This document shows, in pieces, positions 2,872 to 19,400 of a DNA stretch of 20,000 nt. Below the pieces are notes generated by a model that saw only the letters and a list, made by a program, of their open reading frames with translations, ran no database searches and had not been told where the DNA came from. Numbering within the stretch: the first letter of the stretch is position 1; the number at the start of each line of letters is the position of its first letter. The position numbers and the translations under genes were made by a program. Source of the stretch: an uncultured virus (IMG/VR IMGVR_UViG_3300048502_000073). Lineage: Duplodnaviria > Heunggongvirae > Uroviricota > Caudoviricetes. Location: the IMG/VR virus record IMGVR_UViG_3300048502_000073. The stretch is one strand, 5' to 3'.

Positions 2872-3546
2872 TCAGTGAACGGCGGGCAGCGTCGTTACGG
2901 GCGCCACAACCACGGGCACCGCAGCCGCATTCGCCGGCGGCGTGGTCGGGATCGCCTGGAACAGAGCACACGCGGCAGCAACCGCGGTCGACGCAGCACC
3001 CGTCACCGCGACCGGCGCGCCCGCCAGGTTGGCCAGCACAAACACAGCCGGCAGCGCCGACCCGGCCGGCGACTGGCAGAACAGCGCACCTTGCGCGACG
3101 AACTTGTCCGCGGTCGTGTTGGTCTGCGCCGCCAACGCGCCCAACGTCAGCACCGCCTGCGCACCAGCCGTCACCTGCGCCGGGGTCGGCGTCGAGCTGC
3201 ACCCCGATAGCGTCCCGCCGACCGCAGCGGCAAGAAGGACAGCCAGCGTCGTGAACTTGTGCGGGAAGCCACCCGACAGCGGCCCGCCCCGGTCCTTCGG
3301 CTGGAGGCTCCGCGGATAAGCTAGGACCGGCTCATCCAGGCTCGGATGGTGCTCCGTCACCTTGACCTTGATGCGGAACTCAGCCGGCAAGGCCGCGCCA
3401 TCCGGCAGGTCCTCGTGGTCGAGATTCACCAGGAAGTCGGCCCTCGATTGCCGATCCCGCAGCATACGCGAAACCACGTCCATCGCGCCCTCCGGCGTCC
3501 GGCGTCCGCCACGCGTCAAGCCCATCAGCCAACTGACAATGCCCAT
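2872..3546 (-). CDS. hypothetical protein with internal hydrophobic segment and lipobox (LSGC, Cys116); lipoprotein-like C-terminal half
   Basis: ATG 3546 with GGAGG upstream. KFTTLAVLLAAAVGGTLSG-C at residues ~97-116, then an Ala/Thr/Pro-rich domain with two more Cys. Confidence 0.7.
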   Translation of the reverse strand: MGIVSWLMGLTRGGRRTPEGAMDVVSRMLRDRQSRADFLVNLDHEDLPDGAALPAEFRIKVKVTEHHPSLDEPVLAYPRSLQPKDRGGPLSGGFPHKFTTLAVLLAAAVGGTLSGCSSTPTPAQVTAGAQAVLTLGALAAQTNTTADKFVAQGALFCQSPAGSALPAVFVLANLAGAPVAVTGAASTAVAAACALFQAIPTTPPANAAAVPVVVAPVTTLPAVH

Positions 3547-3581
3547 TTTCAAGCCTCCAAAAGAACGCCCACCACATCGGT

Positions 3582-3857
<276 letters not shown>

Positions 3858-3871
<14 letters not shown>

Positions 3872-4981: not shown

Positions 4982-5166
4982 CAGACAGATGCCCCGCCAT
5001 CGTCCCGGGCAAAATACGGCGTGTTCTCTTCCAGCGCCCGCTTCTGCCATGCCTCCAGGCGCCATATCTCCCGGATCGCCTCGTGCACCAGCGGGTGCAA
5101 CTGCGGGTCACAATACCGCTCCCGCAGCGCACGAACCAACTCAGACACCATCGCTATTTCCGTCAC
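4981..5166 (-). CDS. hypothetical protein (61 aa)
   Basis: GTG 5166 with GGAGG; ELVRALRERY...LVHEAIREIWRL helical pattern common in small phage proteins. Confidence 0.6.
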   Translation of the reverse strand: MTEIAMVSELVRALRERYCDPQLHPLVHEAIREIWRLEAWQKRALEENTPYFARDDGGASV

Positions 5167-5428
5167 GGCACAATCCTCCCGAACTTCCCGCCCGGCAGGC
5201 GATATACCATCCCACCATCCCACACCGCAGCCTCTACCAAATTCGTGGCAATCACCTCTATCTTCGGAATGCCATAACCCTTCGGCTGCCCATACAAACA
5301 ACCGTCCGGCTGCTCCCAAGCCTCCAAACGACCATTCGGGACATCCAAATGCGGCACACGCAGCCAACCAAAACGCCACGCATACGACCAACTATTACCA
5401 CTCTTCAGACGCTCGCCGTCGTCTATCA
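5163..5428 (-). CDS. hypothetical protein (start approximate)
   Basis: Trp-rich C-terminal part of ORF 5163..5627; GTGA coupling to the next gene; start codon not resolved. Confidence 0.45.
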
Positions 5429-5557
5429 ACTGTTGCGTGCTAGAGCGTTGGTCCAGCGCGGTCCCATCGCCTCGCAGATTCACCCATGGCCTGGCGCCCC
5501 GCTGCCGGCCCCCGCCCCGAACGGCTCGACCCGAAAAACTCGGCCTCCAAGGCCGTT

Positions 5558-5595
5558 TGCGCCATTGGATTTCAATGGCGCATTTCAATGGCGCA
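5558..5595. repeat. 10-bp-stem inverted repeat overlapping a 13-bp tandem duplication
   Basis: TGCGCCATTG-gattt-CAATGGCGCA (5558-5582); ATTTCAATGGCGC x2 (5569-5594). Confidence 0.85.
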
Positions 5596-5711
5596 CTGCC
5601 GCATTCGAGCTCGGGAGGACCCGGCAAAATGGGAACAGAGCGTTAGTGGCACTCACAAGATTTGTTCGTAACGATATGCCGTTGATATCACTGATAGAAT
5701 CGTCAGGAGGT

Positions 5712-5739
5712 CGACCGTATAATGGCTATTATGTTAAGT
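5712..5739 (+). other. dif: XerC/XerD dif-like site-specific recombination site
   Basis: CGACCGTATAA-TGGCTA-TTATGTTAAGT in 11-6-11 layout. The XerD arm differs by 1 nt from E. coli TTATGTTAAAT; the XerC arm keeps the CG(T/C)ATAA inner core. Confidence 0.85.
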
Positions 5740-5959
5740 CGAGCGCTAGTGCCTTATTTGGTTCGCGTGGCGTTCTGGCTCCTGGCGCCAAGCGCTGCCG
5801 CCGAACATGCGTCGACCGGGCGCCGAGTGCGGGGTAGATCGGGGTAGATGGACGGCGATGCCGCCTGCCAGCCCTAAGGACGGATATACAATGGATGTAC
5901 GAGAACGTGGCGCAATCCGCGTAGGCACTGCTCTGTATGGTCGGGGGGTGGCGTTAAAC

Positions 5960-5975
5960 TGTAGTGGCCACTACA
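5960..5975. promoter_or_regulatory. perfect 16-bp palindrome, putative protein-binding site
   Basis: TGTAGTGGCCACTACA equals its own reverse complement. Confidence 0.5.
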
Positions 5976-6115
5976 CAATCGCGTCACGTGCGTTCCACTG
6001 GCTATGTCCTTGGACGGGCAGGACATTTCCAGGTTTCCAGCGCCACATACTGTCACTTCTCCCTCGACCGTATAAATGGAGCGCGGTGCAGCATTGGCGT
6101 CGGGATCGTCGCCGT

Positions 6116-6280
6116 ATGCCTTCCTCGTCGGCTCGCGCGTTAGCTGCTGCGATTGAGGTTCGGGTTATTGAGGGTCAGGCGTTGATTCTGGAGCTGCGTG
6201 AGTATGCGGCCGCCGAGGATGCGCGCGTGAAGCCGTTGCAGGGTTTCTTCAGGGTTGAGAAAGAGCCCTTTCGCCGGTGA
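6116..6280 (+). CDS. putative hypothetical protein (54 aa)
   Basis: MPSSSARALAAAIEVRVIEGQALILELREYAAAEDARVKPLQGFFRVEKEPFRR; protein-like composition, TATAAA about 40 nt upstream, no clear RBS. Confidence 0.35.
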   Translation: MPSSSARALAAAIEVRVIEGQALILELREYAAAEDARVKPLQGFFRVEKEPFRR

Positions 6281-6318
6281 TGACGGATGCCATTTGGGGC
6301 GTCCCTGGGTGGCATCGG

Positions 6319-6519
6319 ATGACGACCTCTATGACGACCATGACGACTATGACGACCTTTTCCGTACTTAGCTATTGTAACTAGGATTCGTGTTCATGTG
6401 TCTTTTTGAAAAAGGTTGTCATAGGTCGTCATAGGGGCAAAAAGTCGGCCTGTATGGCCGATCACAGGCATGACGACGGGTCGTCATAAGGTCGTCATTT
6501 TTTGGCAAAAGGTCGTCAT
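6319..6519. repeat. iteron array (ATGACGACC), putative replication origin
   Basis: Forward copies at 6319, 6331, 6340, 6349, 6470; inverted copies at 6414, 6424, 6479, 6490, 6511. The first two clusters face each other across an AT-rich spacer (6358-6413). Adjoins the helicase gene 3' end. Confidence 0.85.
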
Positions 6520-6530
6520 TGGGAGGGGTT

Positions 6531-7904
6531 TTAGGTTGGTTTTGCATACCATCTGCGCTGTGTGTTGCGCATAAGTTTCCAGCCTAAGTGTTTGAGAATG
6601 TTAGAAACACGCATCTGCAACGATCGTGTTTGTTGTGGTATGGGGATACTCAAATGGTCAAAAATGTCGCCGACGGTGACGACCTGCAGGGCATTTTGGG
6701 CTAAAAACATGACGACCTTTGGTTGCCAGGCGTCTTGATCGAAGCGTGCTGCCTGTTCGGGTGCGATGATGGTTCGTTCGAGCTCGGGATGGGGCCACCA
6801 CGGCTCATCGCGCATGAAGAGGTGCATGGCTTCGGCGAAGAGTTGATCGCGGTCGGCGGTTAGTGCGGGGAGGTCGATGGTGCCGCATTTGACGGGCCAG
6901 AAGCGTCTCGCGCCTGTTGCGTCGCGGAGGTAGTGTTCATCGTTGGTGCTGCCGATGAATAGGCACTGGCGTGGTTCGTGGACCTCGTATCGTCCGTATT
7001 TCGGGGTGTAGATTTCCTCGCATTGGCTGATGAATTTCTTGATATCCTCGACTTCCGCGGCGCCGAATGACGACATTTCGCCGATTTCGACGAGCCATTT
7101 CCCGCGGAGGTGCATTGACACGCGGACTGGGTCGCCGCGCTTGATGTCGGGCAGATTGTCGCTGAACCACAGTCCGCCCGCGAGCGCGCGGCATGCGCTC
7201 GACTTTCTGGCGCCTTGCGGTCCCTCGAGCACGATCATATGGTCGGCTTTGCAGCCTGGCCGCATGATGCGGGCGACCATGGCGATGAGGAAGCGCTTGC
7301 CGATCTCGGCATAGTAGAGGACCTTCTTGGCGAGGTCGTCATTGTCTGGCACATCGGCGCCGAGGTAGTTCACCAGCCATGTGTCGATCCGGTCGTTATG
7401 GTCCCACCTCAATTTCTCGAGGTAGTCACGCACCGGATGAAATTTATGCTCCACGGCTTGCATCATCATGGCGTCTGCAACAGTGCCACTGACGACTCGC
7501 CGGAAGCCAATATCCTGGAGGATATGCTGCACGACCGTTACGTCATTGTCGGCGAGCGGCCTCGGCAGGTCGCCGCGCGATCCGTCTGGTTCCCTGACGA
7601 GAAATGGAAGGCGCATCATCTCGTCATATTTGACGATCGGGAACATCCAGTGATTATCGAGCGCGAGTTTGGCATTGTAGAGATTGGGGATCGGGGTCGC
7701 GCTATTTGAAAGCTGTATCTTCTTGCGCCATTCTGCCCGCGCGTTGCCGGTGTCGCCGGGAAACGGTGAAGGTGATGCCTTAGCCGGGCGTCGCGGCTTC
7801 GGTGCCGGTTTCGGCGGCGGATTGGGCGATGATGCCGCGCGCGGCGGCGGCGCTACATACGGTTCGTTGTCGTCATCGTCGTCCAGCGGGTTGAGTGGGG
7901 TCAT
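6531..7904 (-). CDS. VapE-like (virulence-associated protein E family) P-loop replicative helicase
   Basis: HPVRDYL..LRWD...RID, VARIMRPGCKADHMIVLEGPQGARKSS (Walker A), WLVEIGEM (Walker B), FIGSTN, DATGARRFWPV, RDQLFAEA, C-terminal winged-helix-like segment. Confidence 0.92.
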   Translation of the reverse strand: MTPLNPLDDDDDNEPYVAPPPRAASSPNPPPKPAPKPRRPAKASPSPFPGDTGNARAEWRKKIQLSNSATPIPNLYNAKLALDNHWMFPIVKYDEMMRLPFLVREPDGSRGDLPRPLADNDVTVVQHILQDIGFRRVVSGTVADAMMMQAVEHKFHPVRDYLEKLRWDHNDRIDTWLVNYLGADVPDNDDLAKKVLYYAEIGKRFLIAMVARIMRPGCKADHMIVLEGPQGARKSSACRALAGGLWFSDNLPDIKRGDPVRVSMHLRGKWLVEIGEMSSFGAAEVEDIKKFISQCEEIYTPKYGRYEVHEPRQCLFIGSTNDEHYLRDATGARRFWPVKCGTIDLPALTADRDQLFAEAMHLFMRDEPWWPHPELERTIIAPEQAARFDQDAWQPKVVMFLAQNALQVVTVGDIFDHLSIPIPQQTRSLQMRVSNILKHLGWKLMRNTQRRWYAKPT

Positions 7905-8197
7905 TCATACCCCAGCAGCCAATGCAACGCTTCGTCGACAATCTCTGCGGCGGCCTCGGGCCGCGTATCAATGTCGTCGATTACATCGAGAAACCGTGTC
8001 GCGATCCAGTCGTCGATTTCGGCCAAGCCATTGTCGCCAAGCCTGTTGGCGCCCAAGGCGCGGGCTCGACACGCCACGAAGTCAACCGCCTCGTCAAAGG
8101 TGCAACGATTGCGCGCCACACTTAGAGCCTGAAGTCGCACTTCTCGCAAAAGTTTCGGCATCGATATCCGTCGAAAAGTGCGCGCGAAATCAGACAT
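7901..8197 (-). CDS. hypothetical protein (98 aa), coupled to the helicase gene
   Basis: ATGA overlap with the VapE-like start; helical composition. Confidence 0.7.
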   Translation of the reverse strand: MSDFARTFRRISMPKLLREVRLQALSVARNRCTFDEAVDFVACRARALGANRLGDNGLAEIDDWIATRFLDVIDDIDTRPEAAAEIVDEALHWLLGYE

Positions 8198-8483
8198 GGC
8201 CAGCGGCCTGCAAAGCCTTGATCACGGCCACAGACCACGTGTCCGAACGCTCCCTGTCGATAAACGAGACGATGCGATCGTATTGCACCTTGCCGGCAGC
8301 GTCCTTGACGACAGTGCCGCCTGCGGCGATCCGGGCGCGCGACGGTGGCGCACACCATGGCGCGCCGTCCCGCTCGAACACAGGGCACTCGTGCAGCGTC
8401 ATCCCGGATGGCATCTCGACGGTGACGAAGCCGACCAGAGCGCCGCTACGTCGGGCTAACGCTGCCCATTTCAAGATTCGCAC
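8190..8483 (-). CDS. hypothetical protein, SpoVG/SSB-like beta-rich pattern
   Basis: GALVGFVTVEMPSGMTLHECPVFERDGAPWCAPPS...GKVQYDRIVSF resembles SpoVG-like proteins of phage replication modules. Confidence 0.6.
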   Translation of the reverse strand: MRILKWAALARRSGALVGFVTVEMPSGMTLHECPVFERDGAPWCAPPSRARIAAGGTVVKDAAGKVQYDRIVSFIDRERSDTWSVAVIKALQAAGHV

Positions 8484-9879: not shown

Positions 9880-10081
9880 TTTCTGCACTCCGCTTTGGTA
9901 GTGGGTTGCGTTCATGGTATCGAGCCAGCTTGTCGAGCGCTGCTGCAATCTCATCAGGTATCTGAACTACACCTCTCGCCCATTGCCGCACGGTGCCTTC
10001 CTGGCGCCCAAGCATCCTGGCTAGACCCCGTTGGGTCCAGCCGATTGCCTCCAAGCATTCCCGCAAGCGGGTGGGGGTCAT
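9872..10081 (-). CDS. XRE/Cro-like HTH protein (paralog 2)
   Basis: MTPTRLRECLEAIGWTQRGLARMLGRQEGTVRQWARGVVQIP: canonical HTH pattern. Confidence 0.88.
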   Translation of the reverse strand: MTPTRLRECLEAIGWTQRGLARMLGRQEGTVRQWARGVVQIPDEIAAALDKLARYHERNPLPKRSAESE

Positions 10082-10720: not shown

Positions 10721-10922
10721 CGGGGATAATCCTTTCATGCCGCCACGTTGCCCACGCTGCTTTGCGCGGAGATAGATCGCTCATCCCCTTGGTCTGCCAC
10801 AGACCGCCGGTCCACAGAGCTTCGAATTCCTCTCGGGTAGAGCCATCCCCGACCTCGGCAGACAGCCAGTGCATCGTAAAGTCGTCAGTTCCGGTTGGTG
10901 GAAGGCACAGTTCGTCACTCAT
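10713..10922 (-). CDS. hypothetical Trp-rich protein (69 aa)
   Basis: MSDELCLPP...; AAGGAG upstream of ATG 10922. Confidence 0.65.
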   Translation of the reverse strand: MSDELCLPPTGTDDFTMHWLSAEVGDGSTREEFEALWTGGLWQTKGMSDLSPRKAAWATWRHERIIPDV

Positions 10923-11613
10923 TGGGTTTCTCCTTCTTCGCGACGCGCCGCTTCCGGCGCTTGGGTTGCTTTCTGACCACTGGCGTCTTCGCTTTTCGAA
11001 GTTCCTTGGCTGCTTTCTCGACAGCATCGGTCTTGTGGCCCAGGTCAAGAAATAGGGTTCTGATGCCGACTTTTACGCCCGTCTGTGCCTGAATTTCAGC
11101 AGCAATCTGACGCGCGCTCAGGTCTTGGCGGCCCCACAACTCCCGTGCCAGCCTCATCACATCGCCGGAAAGCAGCTTCGGCCGCCCTAAGATTGGCCCA
11201 CTGTTGTTCCGGACCCGCGCATTCTCACGTGTCAGTATCTTGGCGCCATTGGCGATCAGACCGGCGATCTCGGCAGTCTGCGGCGTGAAGTCAAATATCC
11301 GCCCATCAGCCATCATCAGCGACGCCGCGCGTTCTCCTATCGCCGCGTGCGCTTCCCACAGGCCGCCCTCCGTCAGCCCCAACGAGGCTTCATCGAACAC
11401 CACCAGGGTATCGCCAGAGCGAAGCGACTGGACCGCCGCTATAAGCTGAGGTTGCGGCGGCTGGCCGCGCCTCGGCACCATGTCCACATAGATCGGCGGA
11501 TGAGTTCCATCGACCCGAACGCCGGCTTTAATCAGCGCCGCCCGTTGCTCATCTACCGATGGCCCCTTCTTCCGCTCTCTGATGTAGCCTCTTAGCATTC
11601 GGCGCCCATGCAT
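10915..11613 (-). CDS. serine recombinase (resolvase/invertase family) homologue, predicted catalytically inactive
   Basis: Fold signatures GYIR, Q.AAL..AG, LRSGDTLVV, GRPK and a C-terminal HTH are present. YxRVS reads YIRER and DRLGR reads ASLGL. Start is 11613 or 11598. Confidence 0.8.
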   Translation of the reverse strand: MHGRRMLRGYIRERKKGPSVDEQRAALIKAGVRVDGTHPPIYVDMVPRRGQPPQPQLIAAVQSLRSGDTLVVFDEASLGLTEGGLWEAHAAIGERAASLMMADGRIFDFTPQTAEIAGLIANGAKILTRENARVRNNSGPILGRPKLLSGDVMRLARELWGRQDLSARQIAAEIQAQTGVKVGIRTLFLDLGHKTDAVEKAAKELRKAKTPVVRKQPKRRKRRVAKKEKPNE

Positions 11614-13261: not shown

Positions 13262-13378
13262 ATGATGACCTGGATCATATGGATCGCGTTCGCGATCGTT
13301 ATCGGTCTCCCCGCGCTATTCGCGATCCCGATGTGGATTTTGGCATCCGTCGCCTTCCATCCGGTCGGGAAAAAATGA
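13262..13378 (+). CDS. small membrane protein (38 aa)
   Basis: MMTWIIWIAFAIVIGLPALFAIPMWILASVAFHPVGKK; GGAGG upstream; ATGA coupling downstream. Confidence 0.6.
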   Translation: MMTWIIWIAFAIVIGLPALFAIPMWILASVAFHPVGKK

Positions 13379-16456: not shown

Positions 16457-19400
16457 AGAGGCTTCTCTTCGCGCTGGCGTTCCTGCTGCTGGGCGCGACC
16501 GCGCACGCGCAACTGGTCATACCGCTTACGCCAGTCGTGCCGTCGTCAGGCGGAGGCTGCTCGCATAACTGCACGTTCACGGGCATCACGACGACCGCGG
16601 GGATTGACGATACCGTCGGCATCAACACACCGTCGATCGGCGCGCTATCGCCGGGAACCGGCGTGTTTACGACGCTCCAGTCGAACGGCGAACTGAAGCT
16701 GGGCGACGGGGCTTTCCTAAATTCGGGCACCGTGCCCGGGTTGCTCTACTTCGCAGGACTCACGGGGCCGGCGCTCACGGGCGCCCAGGCAGACGCCAAT
16801 CTGATCTTCTGCACATCAGACGCTTTGACCAGCAGTGGCGGCGCGTCCTGCTTCAACATTCTGCACAACTACGGCGGCGGAACGCTGACGGGGGGCAGGA
16901 ATACCTTCCAGATCAAGAGCACGCTCACCGCCCAGAGCGGCCAGACCAACGGCAACTATACCGGTCTCCAGGTCTACACGTCGGCGGACGCAAACGACAA
17001 CGGCACGTCCGGGACCCCGAGCGGCGCGTTCTGGGGCGAGAACATCATCGTCAAGGGATACACGCCGGCATCGGGTAGCAGCTACTACAACGCTGTCACG
17101 GGCAACGAGTATGATATCGGGTGCCAGACAAACGTCACGTGTCAGCAGAAGTTTGGCGTCTATGTCCTGGACACGTTCGATGACGCCAATGCCGCGACCA
17201 TCGGGGCCGTCGCGTTCGATGTCGCGGCGCAGACACCGTCCAACGCACCGGGCTGGGATTGCGCGTTCTGCCTCGGTTACTCGGCGGGGGACTGGCCGTT
17301 CCTGAGCGGAGCCGGCATCGCCTACGGCGCGTTCCAGAACAAGGCAGGCGTCAGCCCGAACGGACTCGTCCCGAACCGCGGCCTAACCACGACGTTCGAC
17401 GCGACGACCATGCGGCCGACCAAGTGGCAGTTCGCTGGGTCTGGATTCGATGTCAGCCCAACCGGGACGGTCTACGTGGGAACGGGCGCCATCGCCCCGA
17501 CATCCACCGGCATGTCGATCGACGTGACCACCCAGAGCCAGGTCAGCGCCGTGGCGGTCGCGACTGGCGGGGCCAACTACACGACCAGCGACTACGTCTA
17601 CGGCCCCAACGGCGGCGTCTACCACGTCACCGGGCTCGGTGCCGGGAACGCGGTCACGTCCCTGTCGATCATCTCGCCGGACGTTTACCCGGTGGGATCG
17701 ACGCCATCCAACCCGGTGACCCTGCGCTATGGCATGGGCAACCAGAACCTGACGGTCAACTTCACCTGGACCGCCGGGACAATACTCGCGATTGCAAACC
17801 CAACGATTACCGCCGGCACTATGACGGGAACGGATGCCTCAGCGGCGAATGTGACAGCGACAGCAAGCACCACGGCGCGGACGCTGGCGGTTCGTGCGGC
17901 CAATGTCATTAACGTCAAAGACTTTGGTGCGGTGTGCGACGGAACAACGGACGATTCTTCGCATATCGCAGCGGCACTAACACAAGTGGCCGCCGGAAAC
18001 GTGACGACCGTATATTTCCCGCCATCGGCAACAGCCTGCATGTCAAGCGCGGCGCTTACGGTTCCATCAGGGACGACGCTTTGGGCTTATCCGGGAACAG
18101 CAACGCTTCAAATGGCGGCAGGGAGCACGGCTAACCCAGGATTGCTAAGTATCGCCAACGTATCAAATGTCTTGGTATATGGCTTGATCCTGGACGGAAA
18201 TTTGGCCGGCGTGCCTGCGGGCAACAATGTTAACACTGTGTTCCAATCATCGAACGTGGTGTTTGACCACGTGACGGTTCAGAATACGCGCGGGATTGGC
18301 GCAGTTTTCTCAACTCAGATCGTTAATTCCGGCATCCGTGATAGCTCGTTCACGAACGTCGGGAACTATTGGATAACGAGCGGGTCAAATGCGGATCAAC
18401 AGCAGGGCGTGGTGTTCTGCTGCGGGACGCTGGCCAATAACCACGACAATTTTGTCACGGGCTCGCAATTCACTTCTACGGGCCTTGACGCTATTTCGAT
18501 CGCATCGCAGGCTAATTTCGTGGCGAGTGCCAATCGGTTTAAGAGCGTGGGTGGGCGGTATACGAACGGCGGCGCGGCGATCTACGCGGCAAACAACAGT
18601 TCCGCAGTGATCGGCCAAAACTCCGTTAACGGGGCGTATGGGAACGGAATCGACGTCATCGCGACTCCACTCGCGACTATCGTTCATAACGATGTGCAGT
18701 TCGCGGGCGGCGCTGGTATCAGCTACGCGCAAGGTTCTTGGTCGTCAATCGTCGGAAACGTGTCGTGCAACAATAACCAGGGTGCCGGGGCGAGCGCCCT
18801 TCAGGCGGGAATTTCGCTCAACGGAAACACGACGGCGGTTACAGAAACGACGGTGGCCGGCAACACAGTCTGCGATACGCAGGGGTCACCGACGCAAACG
18901 TGGGGCATACAAGAAGTCACGAGTGGAACCTATACGAACGTCTGGATCGATCAAAGCAACACTCCTGACGGGAATGTGTCCGGGCCATTCGGTCAAGCGC
19001 TTTCGGCATATACGCCGCTGAAGGTGGGAACAACGGTCGGCGGCATCGCGCAGACGGGCACTACCCCGAATCAGGGCGTTGCGCTCCTCCCTACCGGGAC
19101 CGGGGCAATAATGGGTGCGGTGCCGAACGCCGCACCATCTGGCGGCAACGCTCGCGGGTCTGGCGCGATTGATTTGCAGTTAAGCCGAACGGCGGCCACA
19201 CAGGTGGCATCCGGGCTTGACGCCGTTTTGATCGGTGGGGCAAACAGCACGGGGATTGGCGCAAATTCCGTAACGCTGTGCGCGCAATGGTGCTTAAACA
19301 CCGGAGCAAACGGGCTGGCGTTTGGCTCGTTCGCTAATACTGAATTTCGCAATTCAGGATTTTCGTTCGCGTCAGGGCAGTTTGCGGGGCAGGGTGACAG

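Follow-up and report, generated by a model that had tools for sequence, protein, structure and literature searches.

Mobile elements make use of XerC and XerD, which are recombinases of the host, in several ways. CTX-type elements carry a pair of inverted dif-like sites, separated by about 90 nt, that fold in single-stranded DNA; TLC-type elements have a degenerate XerD arm, a centre homologous to host dif and the activator XafT; and gokushoviruses are likewise IMEXs with a dif-like site. Plasmid sites of the cer and psi type are accompanied by accessory sequence, about 180 bp in length, at which PepA acts together with ArgR or ArcA. In phage P1, the loxP recombination site lies near the packaging origin, and Cre circularises terminally redundant DNA and resolves dimers. 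Sin-type serine resolvase systems reportedly use HU or IHF. In the available text of the literature (including PMC5357621, PMC9226527, PMC12715192 and 10.64898/2026.09.14.751567), viral use of XerCD consists of integration by filamentous or tailless viruses, and non-integrative Xer use is that of plasmids with PepA, ArgR or ArcA as accessories. VGJphi integrates by XerC-only exchange at a single site with centre mismatches (PMC5357621, available text). The literature searched, which covered few subscription papers, contained no account of dif-like sites in tailed phages or of IHF as a Xer accessory, and the accessible portions of 10.1101/633727 and PMC11769102 hold nothing on P1 circularisation or on dif sites of tailed phages.

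We analysed a 20,000-nt stretch of DNA (the window) from an uncultured tailed phage, which contains one dif-like core site and, downstream of it, a partial repeat of that site.

5712-5739, plus strand: dif-like Xer core site (XerC arm 5712-5722, centre 5723-5728, XerD arm 5729-5739)
6064-6075, plus strand: second, exact copy of the XerC-arm 12-mer, inside the boundary gene, with no XerD arm

The 28-mer at 5712-5739 reads CGACCGTATAA TGGCTA TTATGTTAAGT on the plus strand and has the layout of a Xer core, with 11-bp arms, a partial dyad and a 6-bp centre. It is the single match to the pattern ATAA-N6-TTATGTTAA in the whole window, with 0 mismatches, and the shuffled window yields 0.09 matches even when up to two mismatches are allowed. 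By manual count it agrees with E. coli dif at 21 of 28 positions (XerC arm 7/11, centre 4/6, XerD arm 10/11; Table 1 in the available part of PMC2731167). An E. coli-type pattern (up to two mismatches) stayed at control level over 48 relatives, so a matrix built from 55 alphaproteobacterial dif-like sites was used instead. Under this matrix the 28-mer scores 30.4 bits, compared with a top score of 15.9 bits in reversed or complemented controls over 31 records; the training set was gathered with patterns derived from such sites, which biases the scores upward. The XerD arm and the inner XerC arm agree with the host consensus, the XerD arm being identical to that of several Acetobacteraceae dif-like sites, and the inner left arm CGTATAA is the same as in Gluconobacter and Granulibacter (PMC3025954, available part). 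The first-pass annotation had proposed a near-consensus dif site with an 11-6-11 layout at this position, and the profile scan places it far above chance. Judged by its sequence, the 28-mer of this tailed phage is a Xer core site of the host type and is conserved; XerCD would be expected to bind and exchange strands there. The 12-mer copy at 6064-6075 is probably due to chance, given its E value of 0.13 and its absence from three other dif-positive lineages.

The locus shares features with each of the systems above and departs from all of them. Like chromosomal dif (FtsK-activated, Acetobacteraceae type), it has an 11-6-11 layout, the same XerD arm and 23 of 28 positions in common with the dif-like site of a candidate host genome (G002). 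Unlike chromosomal dif, it is phage-borne, has a centre with an ending other than ATA and lies beside an IHF-like motif; its context is that of a phage rather than a terminus with converging KOPS, and 32.5 kb of the phage hold 0 copies of GGGCAGGG and 1 of GGGNAGGG, with no polarity. Like plasmid cer (ColE1) and psi (pSC101) and the dif sites of secondary replicons, it is an extrachromosomal core for host Xer with a likely role in self-recombination (PMC5357621, available text). Unlike cer and psi, it is carried by a tailed phage with no ParA/ParB found in the records searched, its candidate accessory is IHF rather than PepA, ArgR or ArcA, and its centre is 6 bp rather than the 8 of cer. With the IMEXs (CTXphi, VGJphi, TLCphi, GGI and the dif-type double-jelly-roll phages, as described in the available texts) it has in common a dif-like site and a putative reliance on host XerCD. 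It differs from them in belonging to a tailed dsDNA phage of about 64 kb with no integrated form found in the sampled genomes, and in having a single site, whose XerD arm is canonical, and no XafT-like domain; in addition, a relative encodes an integrase. A CTX-like hairpin with the second arm copy is ruled out, as the site is single and the copy is direct, without a XerD arm. The TLC type is likewise not matched: the XerD arm is canonical, the centre is unlike the host-type sites compared, and DUF3653, presumably the domain linked to the XafT activator, was absent from the five records searched. For the VGJ type, which has a single dsDNA site whose centre matches that of the host on the XerC side only, the first two bases of the centre are compatible with G002-type centres. 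P1 encodes both its recombinase and a partition system; for the present phage, the recombinase would be the host's. The likeness to Sin lies in a bending protein beside a resolution site, and Sin is a likely model for the resolvase found elsewhere in this family; unlike in Sin, the recombinases here would be host tyrosine recombinases, and no phage recombinase gene lies beside the site.

The phage is tailed and about 64 kb long (one contig of the same phage measures 63.7 kb). Two records were used to examine it, G001, which is the nearest and spans 32.5 kb, and an overlapping one, G359; between them they cover about 46 of the 64 kb. G001 encodes a large terminase whose homologs are so annotated in GenBank, with 587 relatives. 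No isolated close relative of the phage was found, and the 72,556 plasmids searched contain no close terminase. The 24 listed runs that contain this stretch are all peat or permafrost metagenomes. The site and its flanks are the same in five near-identical records, and three public sequencing runs, one of them possibly the source of the window itself, span the site with no joint or loose end. The site is thus internal to the phage, and the earlier view that it is not an attL/attR boundary stands.

A pattern scan of 2.9 million viral contigs returned five loci, two of which are copies of this phage. Among the other three is G009, a distant syntenic relative whose terminase is about 33%, portal 23% and TPR protein 22% identical to those of G001; the sole DNA match between the two is the 28-mer itself (26/28). 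We then took 29 relatives whole, by length, from the best 80 of at least 593 terminase matches, and scored them with the matrix. Strong sites were found in G001 (30.4 bits), G009 (33.6 bits) and G322 (26.7 bits), against a control maximum of 15.9 bits, and five weak matches of 14.5-18 bits lie elsewhere in the relatives' genomes. Two more dif-positive lineages are represented by L094 (24.1 bits) and the complete genome G857. Position is conserved as well as sequence: in all five lineages the site is upstream of terL by 3.7-9 kb, the distance being 3.7-7 kb in the four lineages other than this phage, and in G001, L094, G322 and G857 it occupies the interval between a small boundary gene and the late block, although the boundary-gene match in G857 is weak (E 0.0015). 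No boundary gene was found in G009 before the end of the record. The conservation expected of a functional site is therefore seen in four other lineages, upstream of the packaging block, and the flanks are not conserved across four dif-positive lineages. The site is nonetheless a minority trait, present in 3 of the 23 boundary-gene records whose interval is covered and missing from the other 20, which rules out a family-wide site. In two unrelated phages (L342 and L325), a dif-like site also adjoins a small-terminase-like gene.

The surroundings of the site in the window comprise the following features.

5433/5434, unstranded: junction at which 90 bp are missing that are present in 5/5 near-identical records and two runs
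5434-5806, unstranded: non-coding interval before the late/packaging gene block, a putative packaging-origin and promoter region
5807-6280, plus strand: small boundary gene, family-wide, whose start may be 5858; a synteny anchor
6319-6520, unstranded: origin-like array of short repeats, direct and then inverted, around an AT-rich spacer, with more copies up to 6720
6531-7904, minus strand: VapE-like primase/helicase (PF05272, E 2e-70; phrog_256)

The 28-mer lies in a 373-bp gap between divergent genes. Within the 90 bp missing at 5433/5434 lie a C-run/A-run motif and the codon at which the leftward gene starts; the gap possibly marks a join, from assembly or from processing, at a putative genome end. 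Of 21 family records, 17 have the C-run/A-run motif, which was picked by eye, in this interval, compared with a background of 4.4%, and promoter-like sequence comes after it in the family intervals. These features suggest that 5434-5806 serves as a packaging origin. Rfam gave no match over 5000-7000, promoter and terminator scans of the window were near shuffle level, and contig ends were not significantly overrepresented around viral dif sites (15 against 10.9 expected, P = 0.09). At 6296/6297 the window is short of another 34 bp, which are also absent from run X1. The interval also holds a 13-bp tandem pair at 5569-5594 that doubles as an imperfect palindrome of 25 bp. Two other contigs, both from run X7, match 5611-5654 over 30-44 bases, 60-100 bp from the dif-like site, and then continue into unrelated DNA, which may reflect a sister phage or a repeated element.

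Homologs of the boundary gene were found in 23 of 32 family records. Its product has no Pfam match and is probably an HTH protein, the HTH leads all falling below the tool's bar; a role as dif-specific activator is ruled out, because dif-less relatives also have the gene. Within it, 5960-5975 forms a perfect 16-bp palindrome, a possible operator, and by eye similar TGTAGT...ACTAC(A) dyads occur in several relatives at the promoter after the C-run motif. The array beyond the gene, situated where the VapE gene has its 3′ end, is made up of repeats of 9-12 bp that run in both orientations; by analogy with P4, it would be a primase-helicase origin. By eye, similar arrays follow VapE in about 5 of the 9 VapE-bearing relatives and are remote from the boundary interval; in G322, VapE itself gave no match. 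A link between site and array finds no support, their closeness being peculiar to this genome and not conserved in relatives. The first-pass annotation had set the site in a non-coding region about 600 bp from an iteron array. The site does lie in a gap and the array does begin 580 bp away (at 6319), but the gap spans only 5434-5806, a real gene (5807-6280) fills most of the remaining distance, and the array appears origin-like rather than composed of plasmid iterons.

Many relatives encode a recombinase of their own. A serine recombinase of about 230 aa, with PF00239 and a weak or short Recombinase domain, is encoded by half of the 32 records (16), in most cases immediately upstream of the TPR gene within the late operon (e.g., at 31301-31996 in G329), and its catalytic motifs are intact in all 16 aligned rows. 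Phages carrying it mostly have no integrase. Of the interval-covered records, 14 carry the resolvase alone, 3 the site alone and 5 neither of the two, and 1 could not be assigned; that is, 0 of the 14 interval-covered resolvase-positive records carry a dif-like site. In a second sample, which includes some near-copies, 13 resolvase-positive loci are without a site and 2 loci have neither. With seven interval-covered records having neither feature, neither can be essential. Conversely, the resolvase is present in 0 of the 5 dif-positive lineages (including G009 and G857), and the sister taxa G322 and G328 carry dif and the resolvase, respectively. The nominal P value of this exclusion (P = 0.006, Fisher's exact test) is overstated, because 13 of the 14 rows with the resolvase, and none of those with dif, belong to one clade of 16 rows; moreover, G001, G009 and G857 entered the sample by virtue of their dif site. 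The exclusion thus rests on about two independent contrasts, with G322/G328 as one clean extra contrast. Against it stand G858, a phage outside the family with a dif-like site and a resolvase together, and the resolvase-positive L497, which has a borderline match of 19 bits (null maximum 17.2).

Tyrosine recombinases are rarer (3 of 32 records), and the sole strong one is a 369-aa integrase in G322, located 20 kb from the dif-like site of that genome. In the records examined, integrase and site thus coexist in G322, which would not need the site as attP given its own integrase. The search for integrase and partition genes suggested by the first-pass annotation gave a mixed picture: besides the integrase of G322, there was none in about 46 of the 64 kb of this phage, and the complete G857 contains neither PF00589 nor PF00239. 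ParA/ParB (PF13614, PF02195) were absent from G001, G359, G009 and the complete genomes G322 and G315. The plasmid-like state once envisaged for the phage thus finds no counterpart in partition genes over about 46 of 64 kb and two complete relatives, or in a terminase match among plasmids. One further recombinase homolog was found in the window.

10915-11613, minus strand: Gin-like serine-recombinase homolog without the catalytic serine and DRLxR, with a weak invertase match (E 0.05)

This ORF does not match the family resolvase profile and is ruled out as a decayed copy of it; from its sequence, its product was possibly reused as a DNA-binding regulator.

A second element recurs beside the cores, and was first spotted by eye.

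5675-5687, minus strand: IHF-consensus-like 13-mer with 1 mismatch to WATCAANNNNTTR, 24 bp from the XerC arm, with its WATCAA end coreward

Taking WATCAANNNNTTR as the IHF consensus, we found an exact motif in G322 on the XerC side at a 13-bp gap (the only exact match in 62 kb), and motifs on the XerD side at a 14-bp gap in both L094 (exact) and G009 (one mismatch). An exact match turns up in 0.25% of random windows and one with a single mismatch in 6.4%, so the motif of the window itself is weak when taken alone, and exact motifs flank 0 of 56 bacterial dif sites. We further listed at least 120 viral matches, most of which look like chance in AT-rich genomes, and divided the matches listed by left arm before counting IHF motifs (22 distinct GCATAA-type and 55 other). 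Among the matches listed, an exact motif within 60 bp is found at 10 of 49 distinct non-family viral sites, compared with 1 of 49 in the reversed control, and at 0 of the 55 chance-like sites. Five of these 10 exact-motif sites, again among the matches listed, have the 13/14-bp gap that had first been noticed in the family (nominal P = 3×10−8). In dif-bearing phages, relatives and unrelated ones, the motif recurs in one orientation at a fixed spacing of 13-14 bp, against 24 bp in the window, and IHF may bind there. It is not exclusive to dif, since many dif-less relatives have such motifs in the interval, and G857 has a different arrangement without the fixed geometry. G857 (L414, about 10030-10045) and the window (5675-5689) share an identical 15-mer that includes a one-mismatch IHF-like motif, in a different orientation and at a different spacing to the dif-like site. 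In an AT-rich phage (L309, around 10001), four exact IHF-consensus motifs surround a dif-like site.

We put at about one half (0.5) the probability that host XerCD recombines the phage DNA with itself, monomerising or circularising it beside the putative packaging origin. The 28-mer would be the binding and crossover site for host XerC and XerD ahead of the packaging genes, and recombination between two direct copies, present either on a multimeric circle or on an incoming genome with terminal redundancy, would yield a monomer circle. Host Xer would do the job of the small serine resolvase found in relatives, and host IHF bound beside the core would shape the synapse; P1 Cre/loxP is the model for such circularisation and dimer resolution. 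The first-pass annotation had proposed that host XerCD either resolves multimers or integrates the phage. Self-recombination appears the better fit of the two, because no integrated form was found, G322 combines an integrase with the site, and the phage centres are unlike the host-type ones. Counting against it are the absence of KOPS polarity and of a DUF3653 activator. A broader proposal is offered tentatively, and we regard it as somewhat doubtful: an undescribed class of Xer sites in diverse tailed phages would consist of a dif core and a fixed-register IHF site by the packaging origin, would circularise or monomerise genomes without FtsK, PepA or XafT, and could replace a serine resolvase within one family.

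The 28-mer could instead be the attP of a tailed IMEX, with XerC-only strand exchange at host dif completed by replication, giving integrase-free lysogeny of the VGJ type. We consider this unlikely, even though a single site with centre mismatches recalls VGJphi (PMC5357621, available text), the complete G857 is without an integrase, and the centre begins with TG like the host-type site of G002, with 23/28 identity overall; the true host site may differ. The five phage centres (TGGCTA, TGGTGA, GGTGTA, TCGCTA and GGCCCA) never end in ATA, in contrast to 19 of 35 Acetobacteraceae-type dif-like rows (one site counted twice) and to the Acetobacteraceae rows in the available part of the PMC3025954 supplement. 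This difference disfavours TLC-type exchange with host dif, which depends on a homologous centre, and does not speak against XerC-only integration of the VGJ type (PMC5357621). The search for prophages at chromosomal dif came back empty, with no integrated family prophage in about 800 sampled alphaproteobacterial genomes, many of them incomplete, and no family genes within 20 kb of the dif-like site of G002. The three bridging runs contain no joint at the site, though contigs drop rare forms, and G322 has an integrase of its own.

Three other explanations carry still less weight. It is improbable that the reaction runs in the reverse direction, with XerCD fusing replicated circles into a concatemer whose tandem packaging signals feed the terminase. 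The family site does lie a few hundred bp from the conserved C-run/A-run motif, the sites in the unrelated L342 and L325 adjoin small-terminase-like genes, and the records searched yielded no partition genes, which would call for monomers. However, what seems to stand in for the site in relatives is an enzyme of the resolvase type; enzymes of this kind normally work intramolecularly, and a bending-protein site beside the core usually imposes resolution selectivity. More improbable yet is binding without exchange, in which bound XerCD would halt a translocase (FtsK or terminase) or serve it as a landmark, repress the neighbouring promoters or act as a decoy for host Xer. FtsK is said, in the title of one study, to stop at XerCD-dif, the site lies between divergent genes, and across the five lineages the arms are conserved and the centres vary freely. 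A variable centre is equally expected under self-recombination, though, and the non-overlap with a recombinase gene points to strand exchange. The least probable explanation is a non-working site, be it a relic from a host or plasmid, the operator of another protein, or chance. The 20 of 23 interval-covered relatives without a site would accord with it, but G001 and G009 have no conserved DNA other than the 28-mer, the arms agree with variants of host dif (of the TTATGTTAAGT or TTATGGAAAAT type), and the family sites score 23-34 bits against a null maximum of 16-17.

If self-recombination by host XerCD is true, a tailed phage borrows Xer for genome processing, a further mode of use with IHF as a possible accessory, and xerC, xerD and ihf become host factors of phage growth. 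A dif-like site alone would then be poor ground for calling a phage temperate. As the arms track host dif types, they may also aid host prediction. The comparison of the arms with host dif, which the first-pass annotation had recommended, led to Acetobacteraceae, several of whose dif-like sites have the identical XerD arm. A GcrA domain, that of an alphaproteobacterial cell-cycle regulator, is present in G001 at about 7415-7980 (L074) between the TPR gene and terL, and suggests an alphaproteobacterial host. Of 401 Acetobacteraceae genomes, one, that of an uncultured Rhodopila sp. (G002), contains the family terminase, on an all-phage contig of 7.3 kb; it is in none of 400 further Alphaproteobacteria. 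G002 had been chosen independently for the likeness of its dif-like site to the 28-mer (23/28). Together, these two findings indicate that the host is probably, though not certainly, an acidophilic member of the Acetobacteraceae. G002 and a second candidate host (G003) have XerD-like and XerC-like genes that score below the curated cut-off. On a contig of G002 (C101; L268, 2604-5859), two more dif-like or Xer-type sites lie near a tyrosine recombinase and a toxin-antitoxin-like pair, possibly a pdif-like module.

Some further variation was observed away from the site. A tail-spike-like gene in the window diverges from G001 and L041 after 17889 (27991 onward in G001), and L307 has the downstream tail part of G001 with another 5′ end plus another terminase-like gene. 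The divergence at 17889 looks like swapping of a tail-gene module or a chimeric assembly. An exact 48-bp repeat occurs at 13321-13368 in the window and at 8433-8480 in G001, in two genes 15 kb apart. Finally, a tract of 6/12-bp repeats of the Gly-Ser-Gly-Tyr type at 3542-3868 differs in length among near-identical records and breaks assemblies.
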